Assembly: GCA_036494575.1 (NCBI GenBank)
Contig: DASXOE010000154.1
Coordinates: 17,345 to 81,344 of the forward strand
DNA: 64,000 bases
Direction of reading: 5' to 3'
From: Polyangia bacterium
Lineage (GTDB): Bacteria > Myxococcota_A > Polyangia > Fen-1088
Of the stretch, positions 41,820-60,131 are shown piece after piece; within the stretch, counting starts at the first letter, position 1; each line of letters opens with the position of its first letter. The notes below the pieces were generated by a model, which was not told the origin of the DNA, ran no database searches, and saw nothing but the letters and a program-made list of their open reading frames with translations. Position numbers and translations under genes: made by a program.

Positions 41820-42845
41820 ATGCGCGGCCTGCGCAAGGTCTACCCCGCGCCCAAGGCGCGTCGCGGGCGCGGCCCTGGGGCCGGCCTCGCGGGCCCCCCG
41901 CGCATGCCGCCGGGCGCCGCCATGGCGCCCACGGGTGGCACGCTCACGGCCGCGGGCATCGTCGCGCTCGACGGGCTCGATCTCTCGGTGGGTGAGGGCG
42001 AGTTCTTCGGGCTGCTCGGGCCCAACGGCGCCGGGAAGACGACGACCATCGGCATCCTCACGACGCGCGTGCTGCCGTCGGGCGGGCAGGCGTCCATCGG
42101 CGGCGCCGACGTCGTCGCGGAGGCCGTGGCCGTGCGGCGCCGCATCGGTGTCGTGCCGCAACGGTCGAACCCGGATCGCGGCCTCGACGTCCTCGAGAAC
42201 CTGACTTTTCACGCGGCGTACTTCGGCTTCCCGCGCGCGGCCTCGCGCGCCCGCGCGCTTGGCATCCTCGAGCGTCTCGGGCTCGCCGATCGCGCCCTCG
42301 CGCGCATCGACGCGCTGTCGGGCGGGCAGCTCCAGCGGCTCATGATCGCGCGCGCGCTCGTGCACGAGCCGCGCGTGATTTTCCTCGACGAGCCGACGGT
42401 GGGGCTCGATCCGCAGGCGCGCCTCGCGCTGTGGGAGATCCTGCGCGGGCTGCACGCCGAGGGCCGCACGATCGTCATGACGACGCACTACATGGAGGAG
42501 GCCGAGAAGCTCTGCGCGCGGGTCGCGATCGTCGACCGCGGCAAGCTCCTGGCCTGCGACGCCCCCGAGGCGCTCAAGAAGCAGGCGCCGGGCGGAACGC
42601 TCGTCGAGCTCACGCTCGACGGGGAGGCGGCCCCGGCGCGAGAGGCGGCGCGCGCCGTCGCGGGCGTGCTCGACGTCGTGAGCGACGGCGCCATGCTGCG
42701 CGTGTACCACCCGCAGGGCGGCGAGGCCGTGGCGCGACTCATCGGCGTCGTGCAGGGCGCCGGGCGGCAGGTCACGAACATCCGTCTCGTGCCGCCCAAC
42801 CTCGAGACGCTCTTCCTCTCGCTCACGGGAAGGAAGCTCGACTGA
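41820..42845 (+). CDS. ABC transporter ATP-binding protein (ABC-2 type)
   Basis: Walker A GPNGAGKTT, signature LSGGQLQR, Walker B ILDEPT. Start at MRGLRKVY. Confidence 0.9.
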   Translation: MRGLRKVYPAPKARRGRGPGAGLAGPPRMPPGAAMAPTGGTLTAAGIVALDGLDLSVGEGEFFGLLGPNGAGKTTTIGILTTRVLPSGGQASIGGADVVAEAVAVRRRIGVVPQRSNPDRGLDVLENLTFHAAYFGFPRAASRARALGILERLGLADRALARIDALSGGQLQRLMIARALVHEPRVIFLDEPTVGLDPQARLALWEILRGLHAEGRTIVMTTHYMEEAEKLCARVAIVDRGKLLACDAPEALKKQAPGGTLVELTLDGEAAPAREAARAVAGVLDVVSDGAMLRVYHPQGGEAVARLIGVVQGAGRQVTNIRLVPPNLETLFLSLTGRKLD

Positions 42846-43645: not shown

Positions 43646-44389
43646 TCAGATCGGCGGCTCGTCGCCAGGCTGCGGCTCGTTGCCCCAGACGAGAATGCCG
43701 TCGATGTACGCCGTGATCTTCGTCGACGGGGCGGCCGCTCCCATCGCCGAGCAGTCGTACGAAAAATCGTCGGTCTGAACGATCGGCGAGAAGTCCTTGT
43801 TGTGCAGCCGCAGCTGGATCTGGCCGGTCTCGAGCAGCGGATCGAGCGCGAAGGCGCCCACCTTGAACGCGATCTCGACGTACTCGTTCGCCTTGGGCTT
43901 GGGCGGCATCACGGCCACGAACTTGGGCCCGGGCGTGTCGGCCGACGTGACGATGTTCGTGCAGCCGAGGTTCGCGACGTCGCAATCGAGCTCCTGCTGC
44001 TTGCCCGCGTCGATCGTGTACCAGTAACGCAAGCTCAGGTCCGACAGCGCGAAGGAGAGCGAGCCCTCGTTCGTGACGTCGAGGACGAAGCTGGCCTGCC
44101 CCGTGTCGTTGCTGCGGCAGGTATACAGGACCTTGACCTGCGGCGCGCCGGCGTCGTCCGCGTCCACCGGGCCAGCGGCGCCGGCCAGGCCCTCGGCATC
44201 CGCCGCGCCGACTGCGCCCGCCGCGCCTGTCGCACCGCCGCCGGCGTATCCCGCGGCTAGACCGGGGCCGCCGTCCTGGGACCGGTTTCGGTAATACTGA
44301 TCGGCGCCCTGACACGCGGCGCTGGTCGCCGCCGCCAGCAGGCAGGCCGCGAGAGCGAGGCGGCGCGGATTGGTTTTCACCGGCGGCAC
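43646..44389 (-). CDS. Lipoprotein with a cellulose/carbohydrate-binding-module-like beta-sandwich domain
   Basis: Lipobox (LAAATSAAC), Gly/Ala linker, then LRYWYTID...QLRLHNKDFS...TDDFSY...ITAYIDGILVWGNEP, which resembles CBM2/3-type modules. Confidence 0.55.
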   Translation of the reverse strand: MPPVKTNPRRLALAACLLAAATSAACQGADQYYRNRSQDGGPGLAAGYAGGGATGAAGAVGAADAEGLAGAAGPVDADDAGAPQVKVLYTCRSNDTGQASFVLDVTNEGSLSFALSDLSLRYWYTIDAGKQQELDCDVANLGCTNIVTSADTPGPKFVAVMPPKPKANEYVEIAFKVGAFALDPLLETGQIQLRLHNKDFSPIVQTDDFSYDCSAMGAAAPSTKITAYIDGILVWGNEPQPGDEPPI

Positions 44390-44483
44390 GCGCCGATCCT
44401 AGACCGCTTTCGAGCTGATTTCGATCTGGCCCGGGTCTCAACGGGGCCGTCAGGTTTCGAGAGAGGCGCAGAGTCCAGGTTGA

Positions 44484-45386
44484 ATGACCCGTTTTGCGCG
44501 GGGAGGCGTCTCTTCCCCCATGATGACGGTCTCGTCGGTTCGCGTGACCTCGGGCTCGCGTCGCGTCGCGTGGCTGGCCGCGGCGGTGCTCGCGTTCGTG
44601 GCGTGCGGCGGGGGCGGACCCCGCGTCGCGGGCGCGCCCGGCGGCGGAGGTACGACGGGCGCCTCGGGAACCGGGGCGGTGGCCGGCACGACGGGCGGCG
44701 GCGGAGCTTCCGGCGATTCCGGCGTCGCGGGCGCGCCCGGTGTCGCGGGCGGCGGCGCGGGCGCGACGGGGACGGCCGGCGCGGCGGGTGGCGCCGGCGC
44801 GGCCGGGCAGGGCGGCGGCGGTGGGGTCGTCGACGCGGGGAGCGGCGTCGCTCCCGAGGCGGGGAGCGACGCCCCGGCCGGTCCGTTCACGCTGACGAGC
44901 AGCGCCTTCATCGAGGGGATGGAGATCCCGCTTCCGTACAAGTGCGCGGAGGTGCAGCCCGCGGGCATGAATCAGTCGCCGCCGCTCGCCTGGACGCCAG
45001 GCCCGCCCGGCACGATGAGCTACGCCGTGACGCTCAACCACGCGGCCGCCGACAATTCGGCGCACTGGGCGCTGTGGGACATCCCAGCCACGATGACCTC
45101 GCTCGCCGCCAATGTCGACCATGTCGCCATGCCGCCCTTGCCCGCGGGCGCCCGGCAGGGCACGCAGAACCTCGACGGCTTCACGGGCATCGGCTACCTG
45201 GGTCCGTGCCCGCAGGCCGTGGGCGCGCGGCAGACGTACCGGTTCACGGTGTGGGCGTTGAAGGTGGCGACACTAGGCGGCGTGACGTCCTCCTCGACGA
45301 CCGCCGCCGCGCAGACCGCCATCAAGAACGCCGCGCTGCCCGGCGGCTCCGCCACCCTCACGGGCACGCAGATCCGGTCCAACTAG
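44484..45386 (+). CDS. YbhB/YbcL (PEBP, Raf-kinase-inhibitor-like) family lipoprotein
   Basis: Lipobox (AFVACGGG), Gly-rich linker, then the PEBP motifs (SPPLAW, HWALWDIP, GYLGPCP, YRFTVWAL). Confidence 0.75.
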   Translation: MTRFARGGVSSPMMTVSSVRVTSGSRRVAWLAAAVLAFVACGGGGPRVAGAPGGGGTTGASGTGAVAGTTGGGGASGDSGVAGAPGVAGGGAGATGTAGAAGGAGAAGQGGGGGVVDAGSGVAPEAGSDAPAGPFTLTSSAFIEGMEIPLPYKCAEVQPAGMNQSPPLAWTPGPPGTMSYAVTLNHAAADNSAHWALWDIPATMTSLAANVDHVAMPPLPAGARQGTQNLDGFTGIGYLGPCPQAVGARQTYRFTVWALKVATLGGVTSSSTTAAAQTAIKNAALPGGSATLTGTQIRSN

Positions 45387-45472
45387 GGCTCGCGACCGAA
45401 GGTCGCGAGGTGGGGGGCAGGGCGTGGAGGCCCCGACGTGAGCCCGTTGCCGCTAGGCAAACGGGCTCCTAG
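45384..45472 (+). repeat. Intergenic repeat element copy A (~89 nt, CTAG-bounded, starts at the stop codon of the upstream gene)
   Basis: About 85% identical to copy B at 49232..49319. Begins ctag ggctcgcgaccgaaggtcgcgag (9-bp hairpin), conserved core gaggtgggg-gcaggg-gt-gaggccccgacgtgagcc-gttgccg-taggca-acggg-tcctag. Confidence 0.65.
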
Positions 45473-45526
45473 CCGTTCGACTCGAAAACAGGACGACGGG
45501 ACCCGCGGGGTGGTAACTCTGAGGGC

Positions 45527-46506
45527 GTGAGGTTTCGCGTTTGGCTCCTGGCTGGCGTCGCCGGACTGGGCGCCGCCGTGCTCGGGTCGGCGCCCGGCGC
45601 GGCGGCGGTCAAGACGGCGCGTCCGCGCGGCGTGAACGCGCGCACGGGCCGCGCGACGCCGCCGTTCTCCGAGCTCGTCAAGGCGGCGCGCAAGAACGAT
45701 CGCGCGGCCCTCGAGCGGCTCGCCGGCCGCTTCGGCGTGGCCCGCCTCGCCGAGGGCGTGCGCGCGCCCGACACGGCGGTCGTGCAGTCGGCGCTCGCGG
45801 CGCTCCCCTTTGCGCGCGGGGGCGTCCTGCTCGCGGCCACGGTCGCCGAGCGGCTCGACGCCGCCGACCCGGCGCTCGCGACGGCTGCGGCGCGCACGCT
45901 CGGCGCGCTGCTCGACGGCGACGCGCCGGCCGAGCTCGCCGAGTGGGAGGTGCCGCCCGACGTCGTGGCCCGCGCCTGCGGCGGCCTGCGTTCCCTCGCG
46001 ACGCGCACCGACGCCCCGCCGTCCGTCCGCCTCGCGGCGCTCGACGCGCTCGCCGGCGCGCAGGGCGCTTGTCCGGCGCTCCCCGATCTGGCGGCCCTGC
46101 TGCTGCATGATCTCGTGCCCGCCGTGCGCCGCGCGGCCGCGCTCCTTCTTCCGGCGGGCGACGTGCGTTCTCAGATCCCCCTGCGCGAGGGTCTGGCCGA
46201 TCCCGATCCGGCCGTGAGCGGCGCGTGCGCGGCGGTGGTCTGCCGGCGCGTCGATCCTTCGGCTTCCGCGGCCGCGGCCCGCGCGCGCCACGATGCGCTC
46301 GTCGAGCAGGCGACGGCGGCGGCGCGCGCGATCGCGGCGGCACCCGCGACGCGGCCCGAGGACGCCGTCGAGATGCTGGCCTGCCTCGCCGCCGCCGGCA
46401 CGCCGGCCGATCGCGCGCTCCTCGAGAAGCTGCGCGGCGGCGGCGCTCCGCCCGTGCGCGAGCGCGCGGCGCTGCTCCTCGGCGGCGCCGCGCCCGGCAA
46501 GCCCGA

Positions 46507-46510
<4 letters not shown>
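45527..46510 (+). CDS. Hypothetical secreted HEAT/ARM-like repeat protein
   Basis: Signal peptide. Repeated Ala/Leu helices with PAVR motifs. ATGA-coupled to murJ downstream. Confidence 0.5.
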
Positions 46511-48099
<1,589 letters not shown>

Positions 48100-48124
48100 G
48101 CCTCAGGCCGAGCGAGAGCGATTT

Positions 48125-48523
48125 TCATCCCACGTCGTTCCCCGGCCGCCGCTCCACGATCTCGCGCCGCAGTACCCCGAGCAGCTGCATCAGGTCGACG
48201 GGCTTCGTCAGCGTCGTGCACACGGGAAAATGCATGCGCCGCCAATCGGGCGTGGAGCTGATGACGATGACCGGAATGGCCTTCAGGAGATCGTCGGCGT
48301 CGCGACGCTTCAGGAACTCGTAGCCGTCCATGCGGGGCATCCCGAGGTCGAGCACGACCACGTCCGGCAGCGCGAACTCGTTCAGGTGCTCGAGGGCGTC
48401 CGCGCCGTCGGTGGCGCCGATCACGGAATAGCCTTCTTCGACGAGAACGTCGCACAGGCCTTCGCGCAGCTCCGAGTCGTCGTCCACGACCAGGACGGAG
48501 CCGGCTGAGTGCGCTGAGTTCAT
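48125..48523 (-). CDS. Single-domain response regulator (CheY-like receiver)
   Basis: VLVVDDD...DVVVLDLGMP...KP receiver motifs. Start at MNSAHS. Confidence 0.85.
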   Translation of the reverse strand: MNSAHSAGSVLVVDDDSELREGLCDVLVEEGYSVIGATDGADALEHLNEFALPDVVVLDLGMPRMDGYEFLKRRDADDLLKAIPVIVISSTPDWRRMHFPVCTTLTKPVDLMQLLGVLRREIVERRPGNDVG

Positions 48524-48736
48524 GCATGAGGTGCTTTTCAAGAAACGTGCCGGATTTCAGGGTGTTGCTGCGATGCTACGGTGGCCTCCGTACAAGCGCC
48601 GTTGCGCGGCATCTTGCCGCGCCAGCCCGTAGCCGTCGCGCAACAAAGACAGGAACGAAACTCGCGCGTAACGTTCGCTCAGGTACTCTCAGTGTCACTT
48701 AGTTACGTTTAGCGTCCGGCTTAGGAGATCTTACCC

Positions 48737-49234
48737 ATGACTTCGCTTATCCGGGGCCGTGCGTCAGCGCCGGCCCTCGTGTTTTGTCTGGCGCTCGCGC
48801 CGGCCGTCGCTTCCGGGGCGGCCGCGCGCCTGCGCATCAAGAATGGGCACGGGCTCACCGTCTCGCTCGGCAGGACGCACGAGGCCGCCACGGGCATTCG
48901 CCCGGACAAGAAGATCTGGACGCTCGAGCTCGACGCCTCGCTCGTCGGCGCGGACGCCGAGCTCCGCGACGTCACGCCGAACGTCGTGGGCGCGCGCTGG
49001 AGCGTGCCCATCGAGACGGAGCACCTCGTGCTCGACGCCACACGGTTTCTCGCGAGCCACGTCTATCGGCTGGAGGTGCGGCGCGAGCGCAAGCTGCTTG
49101 GCAGCGCGCTCGTGTATCTCTATCCGCTGGCGCCGCCGGAGCGCGTGAGCCGCGTGGATCTCGACGGCCAACCCGAGCCCGCGCCGGACAGCAAGGACGA
49201 GGCGCCGGCGCCGCTCGCGAAGGGCGGGCTCTAG
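48737..49234 (+). CDS. Hypothetical secreted protein
   Basis: Signal peptide (ALVFCLALAPAVASGAAA). No family recognised. Its TAG stop is the first CTAG of repeat copy B. Confidence 0.5.
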   Translation: MTSLIRGRASAPALVFCLALAPAVASGAAARLRIKNGHGLTVSLGRTHEAATGIRPDKKIWTLELDASLVGADAELRDVTPNVVGARWSVPIETEHLVLDATRFLASHVYRLEVRRERKLLGSALVYLYPLAPPERVSRVDLDGQPEPAPDSKDEAPAPLAKGGL

Positions 49235-49319
49235 AGGTCGCGACCGAAAATCACGAGGTGGGGCGCAGGGTGTAGAGGCCCCGACGTGAGCCTGTTGCCG
49301 TTAGGCAGACGGGTCCTAG
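49232..49319 (+). repeat. Intergenic repeat element copy B (~88 nt, CTAG-bounded); supplies stop codons to both convergent flanking genes
   Basis: 5' CTAG gives the TAG stop of the + gene (49232-49234). 3' CCTAG gives the CTA (TAG on the minus strand) stop of the - gene ending at 49316. Confidence 0.65.
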
Positions 49320-50179
49320 TTGGCGTAGGGGAGGCAGTCGGCGATCTTGACGTCGGGGGCGGTGCCTCCGGCGTGGGAGCGGCAGGCGTCGCAGGTGGCG
49401 GCGGAGTAGGCCGTCGCGGTGGTCGAAGGCTTGGCGGTGCCGCGCACGCAGACGAAGGGGCCGGCGAAGTCCACGCCCTGCCAGGCGCAGGCGAGCGAGC
49501 CGGCGTTGTACTCGGCGATGTTGCACGAGTGGCTGTCGCCCATGCAGCCGTCCGGGACGGTGTCGGCGGCCGGGATGTAGATCGGGTTCGTGACGTAGGC
49601 GTTGGGGTTGGCGTTGGCGGCGATGTTGGGCCAGGTGGCCAGCTCCTCGGGGGCGGGGACGCGCCAATCGGTCCAGCCGTCTTGCGCGAGCGCCGCACAG
49701 AATTTCCCGGCGCGCTTGTTGGTCATGTTCGTCGCAGAGGGGGAGCGCTGCCAGACGAGGCAGGTCTTGAGGTCCAGGAGCGACGCGCTGCCGAGCATCT
49801 GCGTGCCCGTGCCGCCGCCCGGGCAATCGACGACGGGGGCATCGCCGCCGGACGCGGGAGCTTCGGTCGCGCCCGTGTCGGTCGCCGGCCCGGTGTCGGT
49901 CGTCGCGCCAGTGTCCGCGGCCGGACCGGCGTCCGCGCCGGCCGCAGAGCCCGCGGCGCCGGCGGCCGCCCCGGCAGGCCCACCGACGCCGGCGGCGCCG
50001 ACGCCCGCCGTGGACTCACCCGCGGCGCCGCCGCTGCTCCCCGAGGCGCCGGCGCTGCCCGGATTGCCGGCGGAGTGCGTGGCGCCGCCGCATCCAGGTC
50101 CAGCGCCGAGCCACGCCGCGCACACGAGGGCGCACGCGCAGGCCATTGTCGAGCATGCTCCGTGAGCTCTCAAGCGCAC
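49316..50179 (-). CDS. Secreted DUF1566 (Lcl C-terminal domain-like) protein
   Basis: Signal peptide, Gly/Ala/Thr linker, then DLKTCLVWQRS...FCAALAQDGWTDWRVPAPEELATW, typical of DUF1566. Confidence 0.7.
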   Translation of the reverse strand: MRLRAHGACSTMACACALVCAAWLGAGPGCGGATHSAGNPGSAGASGSSGGAAGESTAGVGAAGVGGPAGAAAGAAGSAAGADAGPAADTGATTDTGPATDTGATEAPASGGDAPVVDCPGGGTGTQMLGSASLLDLKTCLVWQRSPSATNMTNKRAGKFCAALAQDGWTDWRVPAPEELATWPNIAANANPNAYVTNPIYIPAADTVPDGCMGDSHSCNIAEYNAGSLACAWQGVDFAGPFVCVRGTAKPSTTATAYSAATCDACRSHAGGTAPDVKIADCLPYAN

Positions 50180-51885: not shown

Positions 51886-53571
51886 GTGCGCATCGCGCTC
51901 GGACAGATCAATCCCACGATCGGGGACCTCGACGGCAATCGTCGGCTCGTGTGGGATGCCGCGCTCGAGGCCGAAGGCCGCGGCGCCGCGCTCGCGGTCT
52001 TTCCCGAGCTCGCGCTCTCGGGTTATCCGCCCAAGGATCTGCTCGAGCGCGCGGCCTTTCTCGACGCCGCGCGCGCGAGCCTCGACGGCCTCGCGCACGA
52101 GCTCGGGGCTCGCGGCGTGCGTGTGGGCGTGCTCGTGGGTTTCCCCGAGCGCCTGCCGCCGTCGCCGTCTGGGCGCGGCGTGGCCAACAGCGCCGCGCTC
52201 ATCGAGGGCGGCCGCGTCGTGTCCGTGACGCGCAAGTCGCTCCTGCCCACCTACGACGTCTTCGACGAGTGGCGCTACTTCGACGCCGCCACCGAGGTGG
52301 CCGCCGTGCCGTTCCGCGGGCGTCGTCTCGGCGTCACGATCTGCGAGGACATCTGGAACGACGGCGACTTCTGGCCGCATCGCCTCTACCGCGCGGATCC
52401 CGTCGAGGCGCTCGTCGCCGCCGGCGCCGACGTCATCGTGAACATCTCGGCGTCGCCGTACTCGATCGAGAAGCGTCACCTTCGGCCGCGCATGCTGGCC
52501 GCGACGGCGCGGCGCTGGGCGCGGCCGCTCGTCTTCGTCAACCAAGTGGGCGGACAGGACGACCTCGTCTTCGACGGCGCCAGCCTCGGGCTCGACGCGC
52601 GCGGTGAGGTCATCGCGCGCGGCCCCGAGCACGGCAGCGCCGTCGTGCTCGTCGACGTCGACGCCGGGACCGGCGACCTCGGGGCTTTCGACGCTCGGGA
52701 CGAACGCTCGGCCTTGGGCGCGCTCACGCTCGGCACGCGCGACTACGCGCGGCGGTGCGGCTTCTCGCGCGCGTTGCTCGGCCTTTCGGGCGGCATCGAC
52801 TCGGCGCTCGTGGCCTGCGTCGCGGCGCGCGCGCTCGGCCCGCGCAACGTGCTGGGCGTCGCCATGCCGTCGCGCTTCTCGTCGGAGGGCTCGCGGCGCG
52901 ACGCCGAGGCGCTCGCGCGCGCGCTCGGCATCGAGCTCGCGACGATCCCCATCGAGCCGATGTTCGCGCCGTACCTCGAGACGCTGCGGGCGCCGCTCGA
53001 GGCCTTCGCGCCCGCGCAGGCGCCGGCCGCGGCGGCGGAGGCGGCGCAGCTCACGTCCGAGAACCTGCAGGCGCGCATCCGCGGGGCCATCCTCATGGCC
53101 CTGTCCAATCGCCAGGATCGCCTGCTGCTCACGACGGGAAACAAGAGCGAGATCGCGACGGGCTACTGCACGCTCTACGGCGACATGGCCGGCGGCCTGG
53201 CCGTCATCAGCGACGCGCCCAAGACGCTCGTCTATCGCCTGGCCCGCGCCGTGAACGCCGAGGCGCCCGTCATTCCCGAGTCGACGCTCACGAAGGCGCC
53301 GTCGGCCGAGCTGCGCCCCGACCAGACCGACCAGGATTCGTTGCCGCCGTACGACGTGCTCGACGCGATCCTCGAGGCGCACCTCGTCGAAGGCAAGGAT
53401 ACCGAAGCCCTCGTGGCCGCCGGCTTCGAGCGCGCCGTCGTCACCGACGTCGTGCGCCGCGTGCGCGCGAGCGAGTACAAGCGCCGCCAGATGCCGCCCG
53501 GCCTCAAGATCACGGGCAAGGCCTTCGGCCCCGGCCGCCGCTACCCGATCGCCGCCGCCTGGAAAGGCTGA
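51886..53571 (+). CDS. nadE: Glutamine-dependent NAD+ synthetase
   Basis: N-terminal CN-hydrolase domain (RIALGQINPTIGD, FPELALSGYPP, ICEDIW) and C-terminal NAD synthetase domain (GLSGGIDSAL). GTG start at 51886 preferred over the upstream TTG. Confidence 0.9.
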   Translation: MRIALGQINPTIGDLDGNRRLVWDAALEAEGRGAALAVFPELALSGYPPKDLLERAAFLDAARASLDGLAHELGARGVRVGVLVGFPERLPPSPSGRGVANSAALIEGGRVVSVTRKSLLPTYDVFDEWRYFDAATEVAAVPFRGRRLGVTICEDIWNDGDFWPHRLYRADPVEALVAAGADVIVNISASPYSIEKRHLRPRMLAATARRWARPLVFVNQVGGQDDLVFDGASLGLDARGEVIARGPEHGSAVVLVDVDAGTGDLGAFDARDERSALGALTLGTRDYARRCGFSRALLGLSGGIDSALVACVAARALGPRNVLGVAMPSRFSSEGSRRDAEALARALGIELATIPIEPMFAPYLETLRAPLEAFAPAQAPAAAAEAAQLTSENLQARIRGAILMALSNRQDRLLLTTGNKSEIATGYCTLYGDMAGGLAVISDAPKTLVYRLARAVNAEAPVIPESTLTKAPSAELRPDQTDQDSLPPYDVLDAILEAHLVEGKDTEALVAAGFERAVVTDVVRRVRASEYKRRQMPPGLKITGKAFGPGRRYPIAAAWKG

Positions 53572-55118: not shown

Positions 55119-55538
55119 ATGGGAACGAGGCTATACGTCGGGAATTTGTCGTACAACGTGACCGAGCCCGAGCTGCGTGACGTCTTCGCCGAAGGCGGCA
55201 AGAACGTCGTCGAGGTGAAGGTGGTGATGGATCGAGAGACGGGCCGTCCACGCGGATTCGCCTTCGTCGAGATGGGAAGCGATGAGGAGGCCTCGCAGGC
55301 CATCCAGACGCTGACCGGTCGAGAGATCCAGGGCCGCGCTATCAACGTCAGCGAAGCACGCGAGCGCGCGCCGCGCAGCGGTGGCGGCGGCGGTGGTGGC
55401 TACGGCGGCGGCGGCGGCGGTGGCGGCTACGGCGGCGGTGGTGGCGGGGGCCGCGGCCGCGGCGGCGGCGGCGAGTATGGCGGCGGCGGCGAAGGCCGTG
55501 GCCGCGGCGGCGGTGGCGGTCGACGGGGCGGCTGGTAA
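55119..55538 (+). CDS. RRM-type RNA-binding protein with a Gly-rich (RGG/YGG) C-terminal tail
   Basis: RNP-2 (LYVGNL) and RNP-1 (RGFAFVEM) motifs. C-terminal GGYGGGGGG repeats. Confidence 0.9.
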   Translation: MGTRLYVGNLSYNVTEPELRDVFAEGGKNVVEVKVVMDRETGRPRGFAFVEMGSDEEASQAIQTLTGREIQGRAINVSEARERAPRSGGGGGGGYGGGGGGGGYGGGGGGGRGRGGGGEYGGGGEGRGRGGGGGRRGGW

Positions 55539-55614
55539 GGGGCGTTCGCTCCGCTCGCTTCGCGAAAGGGGCTTTGCCCCTCTCGCGGGCTCTCCCCGTT
55601 TCGTAAGGCGAGCC

Positions 55615-59358: not shown

Positions 59359-60131
59359 GTCGTCGCCTCGGGCGCGGGCGCGCGCGGCGCGGCCGCCAGC
59401 GCCGCCACGAGGCTCAGAAACGCTTCCTCGAGGCTGCTCGCTCCGCCCGCGCGCGCGCGCAGCTCGGCGGGGCTGCCCTCGGCGATGAGTCGGCCCTCGT
59501 GCAGAAGGCCGATGCGGTCGCAGAGGAGCTCCGCCTCGGCGAGGTAGTGCGTCGAGAAGATCACGGCCTTGCCGCGGTCGCGCTCGCCGCGCACGAAGTC
59601 GCGCAGGAAGCGCGAGGCGAGGACGTCGAGGCCGACCGTCGGCTCGTCGAGGATGAGCACGGCCGGGTCGTGCAGGACGGCGCGCGCCACCGAGAGGCGT
59701 TGGCGCTGCCCCGTCGAGAGGGCCTCGCAGCGTCGGTCGAGGAAAGGCTCGAGATCGAGCCCACGGGCGAGCAGCGCCGTGCGCGCGGCGATGTCGGCGT
59801 CTGACATCCCGTGCAGGCGGCCGAAGTAGCGCAGAAGCTCGCGGCCCGACAGGCGCGCGTAGAGGCCCGTCGAGCCCGTGAGGAACCCGAGCTGGCGCCG
59901 CGCGCCCTGCGGGTCGCGCGCGACGTCGACGCCCGCGAGCTCGGCGCGGCCCTCCGTGGGCACGAGGATGGCCGCGAGCACGCGCAGCGTCGTGGTCTTC
60001 CCGGCGCCGTTCGGGCCGAGCAGGCCGTAGATCTCGCCGGGCGCGACGCTGAACGACAGATCGTCGACGGCGAGCGCCGCGCCGAAGCGCTTCGTGAGGT
60101 GCAGGACTGCGACGCCGGAGGAGCTCGTCAT
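59355..60131 (-). CDS. ABC transporter ATP-binding protein
   Basis: Walker A GPNGAGKTT, signature LSTGQRQR, Walker B ILDEPT. ATGA-coupled to the permease-CPBP gene. Confidence 0.9.
   Translation of the reverse strand: MTSSSGVAVLHLTKRFGAALAVDDLSFSVAPGEIYGLLGPNGAGKTTTLRVLAAILVPTEGRAELAGVDVARDPQGARRQLGFLTGSTGLYARLSGRELLRYFGRLHGMSDADIAARTALLARGLDLEPFLDRRCEALSTGQRQRLSVARAVLHDPAVLILDEPTVGLDVLASRFLRDFVRGERDRGKAVIFSTHYLAEAELLCDRIGLLHEGRLIAEGSPAELRARAGGASSLEEAFLSLVAALAAAPRAPAPEATT

Follow-up and report, generated by a model that had tools for sequence, protein, structure and literature searches.

Several families of short, non-coding mobile repeats have been described in bacteria. IS5-related elements at TA or CTAG targets are represented by MITEPsy1 of Pseudomonas syringae, a MITE (a transposable element of the miniature inverted-repeat kind) of 100 nt that is related to the IS5 family, duplicates CTAG or YTAA, and is known to be mobile via its filled and empty sites (PMC3189936). 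Bacterial MITE-like repeats typically carry a terminal TA, and the Correia/NEMIS, RUP and ERIC repeats are highly structured when transcribed (PMC2229807). The present analysis concerns a stretch of 64,000 nucleotides of contig DASXOE010000154.1 from a Polyangia bacterium (assembly GCA_036494575.1), here called the window, in which an intergenic repeat of this size class occurs twice (copies A and B), each time starting at the TAG stop codon of a gene. The repeats are probably a MITE-like, non-autonomous and non-coding mobile element of an uncultured Polyangia lineage from soil, which inserts at the rare sequence (C)TAG and therewith often in stop codons. It is to be seen as a new family of a familiar type and not as a proven RNA gene. 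No described myxobacterial 87-bp repeat and no stop-codon-targeting MITE was found in the body of literature that was searched.

A repeat search of the window yielded an ungapped direct repeat of 83 nt with 87% identity (45383-45465 versus 49231-49313). Both copies are bounded by CTAG, located at 45383-86 and 45469-72 for copy A and at 49231-34 and 49316-19 for copy B. The initial annotation had described two such copies beginning at TAG stops, and this was confirmed; both are also recognised by the covariance model of the family (scores in Table 1). When the copies were aligned together with their flanks, the similarity was confined to the part between the left and the right CTAG and the flanks were unalignable, so that a segmental duplication is not involved. 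The upstream genes are an open reading frame (ORF) with a PEBP domain and an unrelated ORF of 165 aa, in line with the initial annotation, which held that the element does not belong to a duplicated gene. The 165-aa ORF has a G+C content by codon position (1/2/3) of 0.75/0.51/0.89 and is conserved in contig L044 with 92.6% nucleotide identity (L numbers designate the other contigs that were compared). Copy A is also present at the orthologous site in contigs L007, L008, L025 and L044. Copy B fills exactly the gap between two convergent stop codons, the CTA at its right end being the stop of an ORF with an Lcl_C domain; it looks like a decayed copy.

The exact, invariant 18-mer core of the element, GAGGCCCCGACGTGAGCC, was found at 24 loci in a collection of 185,579 species with one genome per species. 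Eleven of these loci are full copies, all in the two Polyangia metagenome-assembled genomes (MAGs) SMAG_U6531 and SMAG_U14514, and the remaining 13 are chance matches in coding sequence. With 5-6 exact-core copies per MAG the copy number is apparently low. A 22-nt pattern scan of metagenome contigs provided 39 more loci, and nhmmer with a hidden Markov model (HMM) built from the first copies gave about 52 copies. After an all-against-all comparison of the flanks, by which orthologues were merged, about 35 independent insertion sites remained. Dispersal in multiple copies is therefore a direct observation, and the two copies of the window are far from being the only ones.

Insertion polymorphism was also observed directly. 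Four orthologous contig pairs with flanks 91-96% identical differ by the presence of the element, in the form of clean indels of 85-86 nt. In one pair the site of copy B is filled in the window and empty in L044 (85-nt indel), with the orthologue of copy A on this same L044 contig. Without the element the sequence is ...GGCGGCCTT-TAG-TTGGCG..., and with it ...GGCGGGCTC-TAG[82 nt]TAG-TTGGCG.... In L044, which lacks the insertion, the two convergent genes have overlapping stops (TTAG); once the element is inserted, each has a stop of its own. The three further pairs are L029 (filled) versus L062 (empty; GTC-TAG-CC), L062 (filled) versus L029 (empty; CGCC-AAG-GCC; 86-nt indel), and L049 (filled) versus L042 (empty; GGC-TAG-CCCGG). 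(C)TAG is present once in three of the four empty sites, and at both junctions when the site is filled. From this filled/empty polymorphism it follows that the element is, or recently was, mobile. For copy A, distant orthologues of the PEBP gene (74-81% amino-acid identity, same gene order) are separated from the next gene by 38-60 nt, compared with 140 nt in the window; to judge from the spacing, the shorter gap fits an absence of the copy.

The junction sequences agree with the duplication of a short target. The family ends are TAGGGGTCGCGACC... on the left and ...GACGGGCTCCTA on the right. Of 34 copies, 27 have TAG as the left junction, and in 27 of 28 a C stands before it; on the right the sequence ...CTCC is followed by TAG, or by TAA, TAC, TGG, CAG, AAG and other variants. 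The left TAG is seemingly more conserved than the right one, an asymmetry that is gone once the junctions serving as stop codons are set aside: junctions without a coding role have kept TAG in about 55% of cases on either side, left and right alike. Right junctions that serve a convergent gene always keep CTA, despite drift of the third base (TAA in L003 and L053; TAC in L047). In L005 both junctions are CAG. Such a pattern is expected if a duplicated (C)TA(G) target is free to drift wherever no gene needs it as a stop, and L005 agrees with it. It implies a target duplication of 2-4 bp (TA, TAG or CTAG); since the target is a palindrome and the first and last bases of the element are G and C, the exact length is ambiguous.

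The flanking CTAGG has most often decayed to CCAGG, which reads CCTGG on the opposite strand, as seen at right TGG junctions (L008, L007, L041, L061, L063, L035) and at left CAG junctions (L005, L041). This change is the one expected from very-short-patch repair of the Dcm/Vsr type, which is the classical explanation of CTAG depletion. In the window, CTAG was observed 17 times, where base composition predicts 164 and a Markov estimate 43.5; relative to composition it is depleted about tenfold. The genome has a G+C content of 72%, and five of the 17 window CTAGs belong to copies A and B.

The coincidence with stop codons is directly observed and is not restricted to the window. About 31 loci could be assessed. 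A coding-like upstream ORF has its stop in the left TAG at 12-13 of them, and a convergent ORF in the right CTA at 7-9; at about 18 (about 60%) at least one end lies on a stop codon. The gene contexts are convergent (about 10), tandem same-sense (8), tandem antisense (6) and divergent (1). There is no strand preference, promoter regions are avoided, and either end lands on stops. The unbiased orientation, together with the stops at either end, therefore indicates target-driven insertion filtered by selection, and not an oriented RNA module. The suggestion of the initial annotation that the repeat might be a small MITE targeting CTAG or stop codons is supported by the dispersed copies, by the empty sites and by the stop junctions in either orientation.

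According to the proposed mechanism, the element would integrate at the tetranucleotide CTAG or the close variants TTAG and CAAG, and both junctions would then carry (C)TA(G) through target duplication. Insertions in coding sequences would be lost, and the survivors would pile up on TAG stops and other gene 3' ends because CTAG is depleted in a genome of such high G+C content and coding insertions do not persist. How an insertion is made harmless can be seen in the sequence itself: on the left, TA and the first G of the element together make TAG, and the upstream gene keeps its stop; on the right, the final C of the element makes CTA with the TA that follows (TAG on the other strand), and a convergent downstream gene keeps its stop as well. 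The element would be tolerated, and would begin exactly at the stop, because TAG is rebuilt on both strands. The two GC-rich hairpins and the core would be features of transposing source copies, and single insertions such as copy B would decay later. A DDE transposase, of IS630 or of IS5/IS1182 type, would act on the element in trans, and any effect on mRNA 3' ends would be a by-product.

Insertion sequences (IS) of both types, IS5/IS1182-like and IS630-like, reside in the populations that carry the repeat. A 1.55-kb IS in L038 (320-1871) encodes a transposase of 466 aa with DUF772 and DDE_Tnp_1 domains (IS5/IS1182-like) and has 17-bp terminal inverted repeats (TIRs), GGAGGGTGTCCAGGTAA. CTAG flanks this IS at either end, and its insertion point is exactly the left CTAG of an element copy; L036 (1370-1560) has the same left flank without the IS. 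The right flank is not shared between L036 and L038. In L054 (632-1233) an IS-like element interrupts a copy of the repeat and replaces its 5' half, with the junction ...AAAGCGGTC-TA-GGCCCCGACG. Its ORF, as read from the sequence, resembles the N-terminal portion of an IS630-type transposase; members of the IS630 family favour CTAG and duplicate TA. The L054 ORF also holds a run of eight A, a possible frameshift site, and its contig resembles L057 (858-1000) only up to 54 nt past the copy, where a rearrangement or an assembly chimera is possible.

Several observations weigh against the interpretation as a MITE. Its main weakness is the near absence of TIRs: beyond the target, the two ends share only GGRGYC (5/6 positions). 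An autonomous parent was not found, no solitary element ends were present in 232 kb of Polyangia sequence, and the termini of the IS in L038 and L054 are unlike the element beyond CTAGGRG. The pair L062/L029 is an anomaly, as the filled site has TAG on the left and AAG on the right and the empty site also has AAG; this requires either an insertion into CAAG followed by an A-to-T change that created the stop, or an element that brought its own TAG. At the left, CGAG stands in place of CTAG in four copies. Of the two window copies, B departs further from the consensus than A and yet is the one that varies in presence; to explain this, either its source copy must already have been diverged or the L044 lineage must have lost it precisely. 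The conservation of the core cannot be judged, since the core served as the search pattern and its invariance is in part forced.

The consensus of the family is CTAG / GGGTCGCGACC-GAA-GGTCGCGAGG / TGGAGGGGMAGGGCGTGGAGGCCCCGACGT / GAGCCCGTTGC(C-GTTA-G or G-TTTTA-C)GCAGACGGGCTC C / TAG. The body has 80-87 nt (32 copies) and no coding capacity, with TAG/TGA stops in two of the three forward frames. It folds into a 5' hairpin of 8-9 bp capped by a GAA loop, a weak helix of 4 bp within the G-rich core, and a 3' hairpin of 12 bp that contains a T.G pair and a bulged A. Of the cells in these three helices 95.6% are paired across 32 independent copies, a value reached by 0 of 500 shuffles, and copy A folds well as RNA on either strand (z = -4.0 and -5.0). 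Together with the location at gene 3' ends, this could be taken to mean that the element is mainly a functional structured RNA (a 3'-untranslated-region (3'-UTR) stabiliser, a terminator or a small RNA) which is selected at gene ends and uses mobility only as its spreading route. We consider this unlikely. The DNA folds are at least as significant as the RNA folds (z = -5.6). Compensatory changes exist at only two positions, namely the 5'-hairpin pair of alignment columns 13-21 (A-U to G-C in 5/32 copies) and the apical pair of the 3' hairpin (C-G to G-C between subfamilies), the count for the latter being too low, as the 5-nt-loop variant is displaced in the MAFFT alignment. Such changes mark subfamilies and represent few events, and they would equally preserve a DNA palindrome. 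The palindromes are preserved in the source copies that spawned new copies, a pattern that does not distinguish DNA from RNA as the selected form. The initial annotation had seen a 5' palindrome in both copies, and wobble-compatible substitutions. The palindrome is intact in copy A; in copy B 3/8 pairs are broken, three G-to-A changes in one arm produce C.A mismatches on the plus strand and not wobbles, and the fold is no better than shuffles (z = -1.45). A terminal stem GCTAGG...CCTAGC (columns 75-80 with 92-98) that the initial annotation had also proposed was not sustained: its covariation of 0.152 equals the shuffle mean of 0.152 and is reached by 244 of 500 shuffles, it is mostly CTAG self-complementarity, and it competes with the much stronger conserved 3' hairpin. 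A non-coding RNA (ncRNA) of the 3'-UTR or a terminator, as stated there, also found no support. Rfam 15 gave no match in the whole window at gathering thresholds, and with E values up to 10 the sole match in 45300-49450 was an unrelated snoRNA model elsewhere than the copies. A promoter and terminator scan gave nothing at either copy, and no hairpin with a T-tail (U-tail in the transcript) was found. The orientation relative to the stop-hit gene is unbiased (12-13 versus 7-9; tandem contexts 8 versus 6), and in the close relative L044 the site of copy B is empty, with no replacement sequence. A tRNA-like reading of the cloverleaf-looking fold was rejected, as ARAGORN gave no match.

Because the TIRs are almost absent, a rival in which a single-strand transposase or a recombinase recognises the end-adjacent hairpins stays alive. 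The element would then have moved by a REP/RAYT-like, an IS200/IS605-type (PATE-like) or a site-specific recombination mechanism in place of a DDE transposase, bringing its own left CTAG and inserting next to (C/T/A)AG without true duplication. REP sequences have a layout of GTAG plus a hairpin, and each end of the present element similarly consists of CTAG followed directly by an imperfect GC-rich palindrome. The C-GAA-G loop is a stable motif of single-stranded DNA, the T.G pair and the bulge make the 3' hairpin strand-asymmetric, and the right triplet in L062/L029 equals the empty site (AAG) while the left is TAG. All the same, this mechanism appears rather improbable. The two hairpins are unrelated in sequence, unlike those at the ends of REPINs and of IS200/IS605 elements, which resemble each other, and just 1-2 nt separate the 3' hairpin from the junction, which leaves no room for a guide segment. 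The CAG at both junctions of L005 is what duplication predicts, TAG survival is similar at unselected left and right junctions, and no RAYT or TnpA gene was seen, though the contigs are short. An extended version, in which a TIR-less "stop-codon homing" repeat with its own TAG is inserted next to (C/T/A)AG by a non-DDE mechanism (single-stranded DNA transposase or recombinase), is possibly guided by the two unrelated end hairpins, and is retained as a bidirectional 3'-end module for convergent genes, is doubtful too. The presence of just two copies, 3.8 kb apart, in the 64-kb window might finally suggest a local segmental duplication or chance similarity. This is hardly credible, given that the similarity stops exactly at the CTAG boundaries, that dozens of copies lie at unrelated loci on other contigs, and that the 18-mer core is expected by chance 0.36 times per window at up to 3 mismatches.

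The coordinates of the features discussed are summarised in Table 1.

Table 1. Copies of the repeat in the window, their structural parts and the stop codons at their junctions
Feature	Position	Strand	Remarks
Copy A with flanking (C)TAG	45383..45472	+	Family covariance model, 109 bits
Copy A body	45387-45469 (83 nt)		Left CTAG 45383-86; right TAG 45470-72
5' hairpin of copy A, CTCGCGACC-GAA-GGTCGCGAG	45389..45409	+	9 bp, GAA loop, intact
G-rich linker and invariant core GGCCCCGACGTGAGCC (45429-45444)	45410..45444	+	Weak 4-bp hairpin GGGC/GCCC
3' hairpin of copy A, GAGCCCGTTGCC-GCTA-GGCAAACGGGCTC	45440..45468	+	Bulged A and T.G pair
TAG stop of PEBP-domain gene (44484-45386), left junction of copy A	45384..45386	+	Pfam PF01161, E = 1e-19
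Copy B with flanking (C)TAG	49231..49319	+	Family covariance model, 77 bits
Copy B body	49235-49316 (82 nt)		5' hairpin broken; 1-nt deletion near 3' end
TAG stop of 165-aa ORF (48737-49234), left junction of copy B	49232..49234	+	
Stop (minus-strand TAG) of convergent Lcl_C-like ORF (49316-50179)	49316..49318	-	Last base of element plus flanking TA; G+C at third codon position (GC3) = 0.98

Some copies on other contigs are arranged in arrays. Head-to-tail arrays with a single shared TAG are found in L039, and also in L005 and L009 with a diverged second copy; L028 contains a tail-to-tail array, again with one TAG in common. The diverged second copies (L005:3259-3320 and L009:3071-3150) stand in tandem with a standard copy and differ in their 3' part. 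They keep the 5' hairpin by compensatory changes, as TCGCGGCC-GAA-GGCCGCGA and TCCCGCC-GAA-GGCGGGA. Searches with the exact core therefore understate the age and the diversity of the family. In the orthologous copies L022 (1640-1670) and L033 (1-20), the first eight or so nucleotides, GGGTCGCG, are replaced by TCACTATGGAA in L022. In contig L032 the repeat has the left flank of the L022 copy and the right flank of the L005 copy; either copies have recombined, or the metagenome assembly is chimeric at the repeat. The linker (window 45410-45429; consensus GGTGGAGGGGMAGGGCGTGGAGG) contains GG/GGG blocks on the plus strand and is C-rich on the other strand. By its base sequence it could form a two-tetrad G-quadruplex, or be a C-rich Rho-loading stretch in antisense transcripts.

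No further copies were detected in the window by nhmmer or by the covariance model with filters off, the next-best score being 19.5 bits. This match, at 59592, is coding sequence and not a copy of the element; the stretch 59592-59675 reads like part of the coding sequence of an ABC-type ATPase. A hairpin with a GAA loop at 51966 was also assigned to coding sequence, and a search of the window for a wider superfamily of GAA-loop hairpins gave matches at chance level only. A candidate for a second CTAG-bounded element (44257-44402) lies inside a minus-strand gene and was rejected. Among the other features of the window, 55348-55542 shows an imperfect GGC/GGT-rich tandem periodicity of 9-15 nt and reads like a low-complexity coding region rich in glycine, tyrosine and arginine. 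The stretches 41997-42409 and 59626-60038 contain two long inverted repeats, 70-76% complementary over 107-118 nt, and are probably paralogous genes on opposite strands.

The repeat represents a small mobile family that had not been described, from a branch of the myxobacteria that is uncultured and poorly studied. It opens no long-standing question, and is a clean example of how target choice and selection can make a selfish element look purpose-built, the coincidence with stop codons arising from target preference plus selection. For annotation it represents a hazard, with false calls of ncRNAs or terminators and shifted stop codons, and metagenome assemblies may contain chimeras at the repeat, as possibly in L032. 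The insertions are usable as strain-level markers.

Among the systems described, MITEPsy1 resembles the Polyangia element in being about 100 nt long and non-coding, and in having CTAG-bounded copies with CTAG (or YTAA) as the duplicated target (PMC3189936). It differs in that the ends of the Polyangia element share only about 6 bp, that the latter is GC-rich with two internal hairpins, and that its parent was not found. With Correia/NEMIS, RUP (mobilised by IS630-Spn1) and ERIC the element has in common that these are short, intergenic, non-coding repeats with a terminal TA which are polymorphic between strains (PMC2229807). Those repeats are AT-rich, with long TIRs and one long hairpin, whereas the Polyangia element has asymmetric ends and three separate helices. 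REP, BIME and REPIN sequences (RAYT) are likewise GC-rich imperfect palindromes beside a conserved tetranucleotide, and lie at the 3' ends of genes and between convergent genes, as single, tandem or inverted units (PMC2817692). REPs, however, number hundreds per genome, and a REPIN consists of two inverted copies of one palindrome (PMC2817692). The two palindromes of the Polyangia element are unrelated, so that it does not have the make-up of a REPIN; its copy number is seemingly low and its junctions resemble target duplications. Nor does it correspond to a PATE derived from IS200/IS605, as the hairpins differ and the 3' hairpin lies 1-2 nt from the junction. The MIRUs of Mycobacterium are intergenic repeats of 40-100 bp in a high-GC genome, whose ends overlap flanking stop and start codons; they are tandem minisatellites, oriented with the operon and containing small ORFs. 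In contrast to MIRUs, the Polyangia element is dispersed and unoriented, with transposon-like empty sites. In its behaviour it is closest to the bacterial MITEs which duplicate CTAG or TA, such as MITEPsy1 and RUP/Correia.

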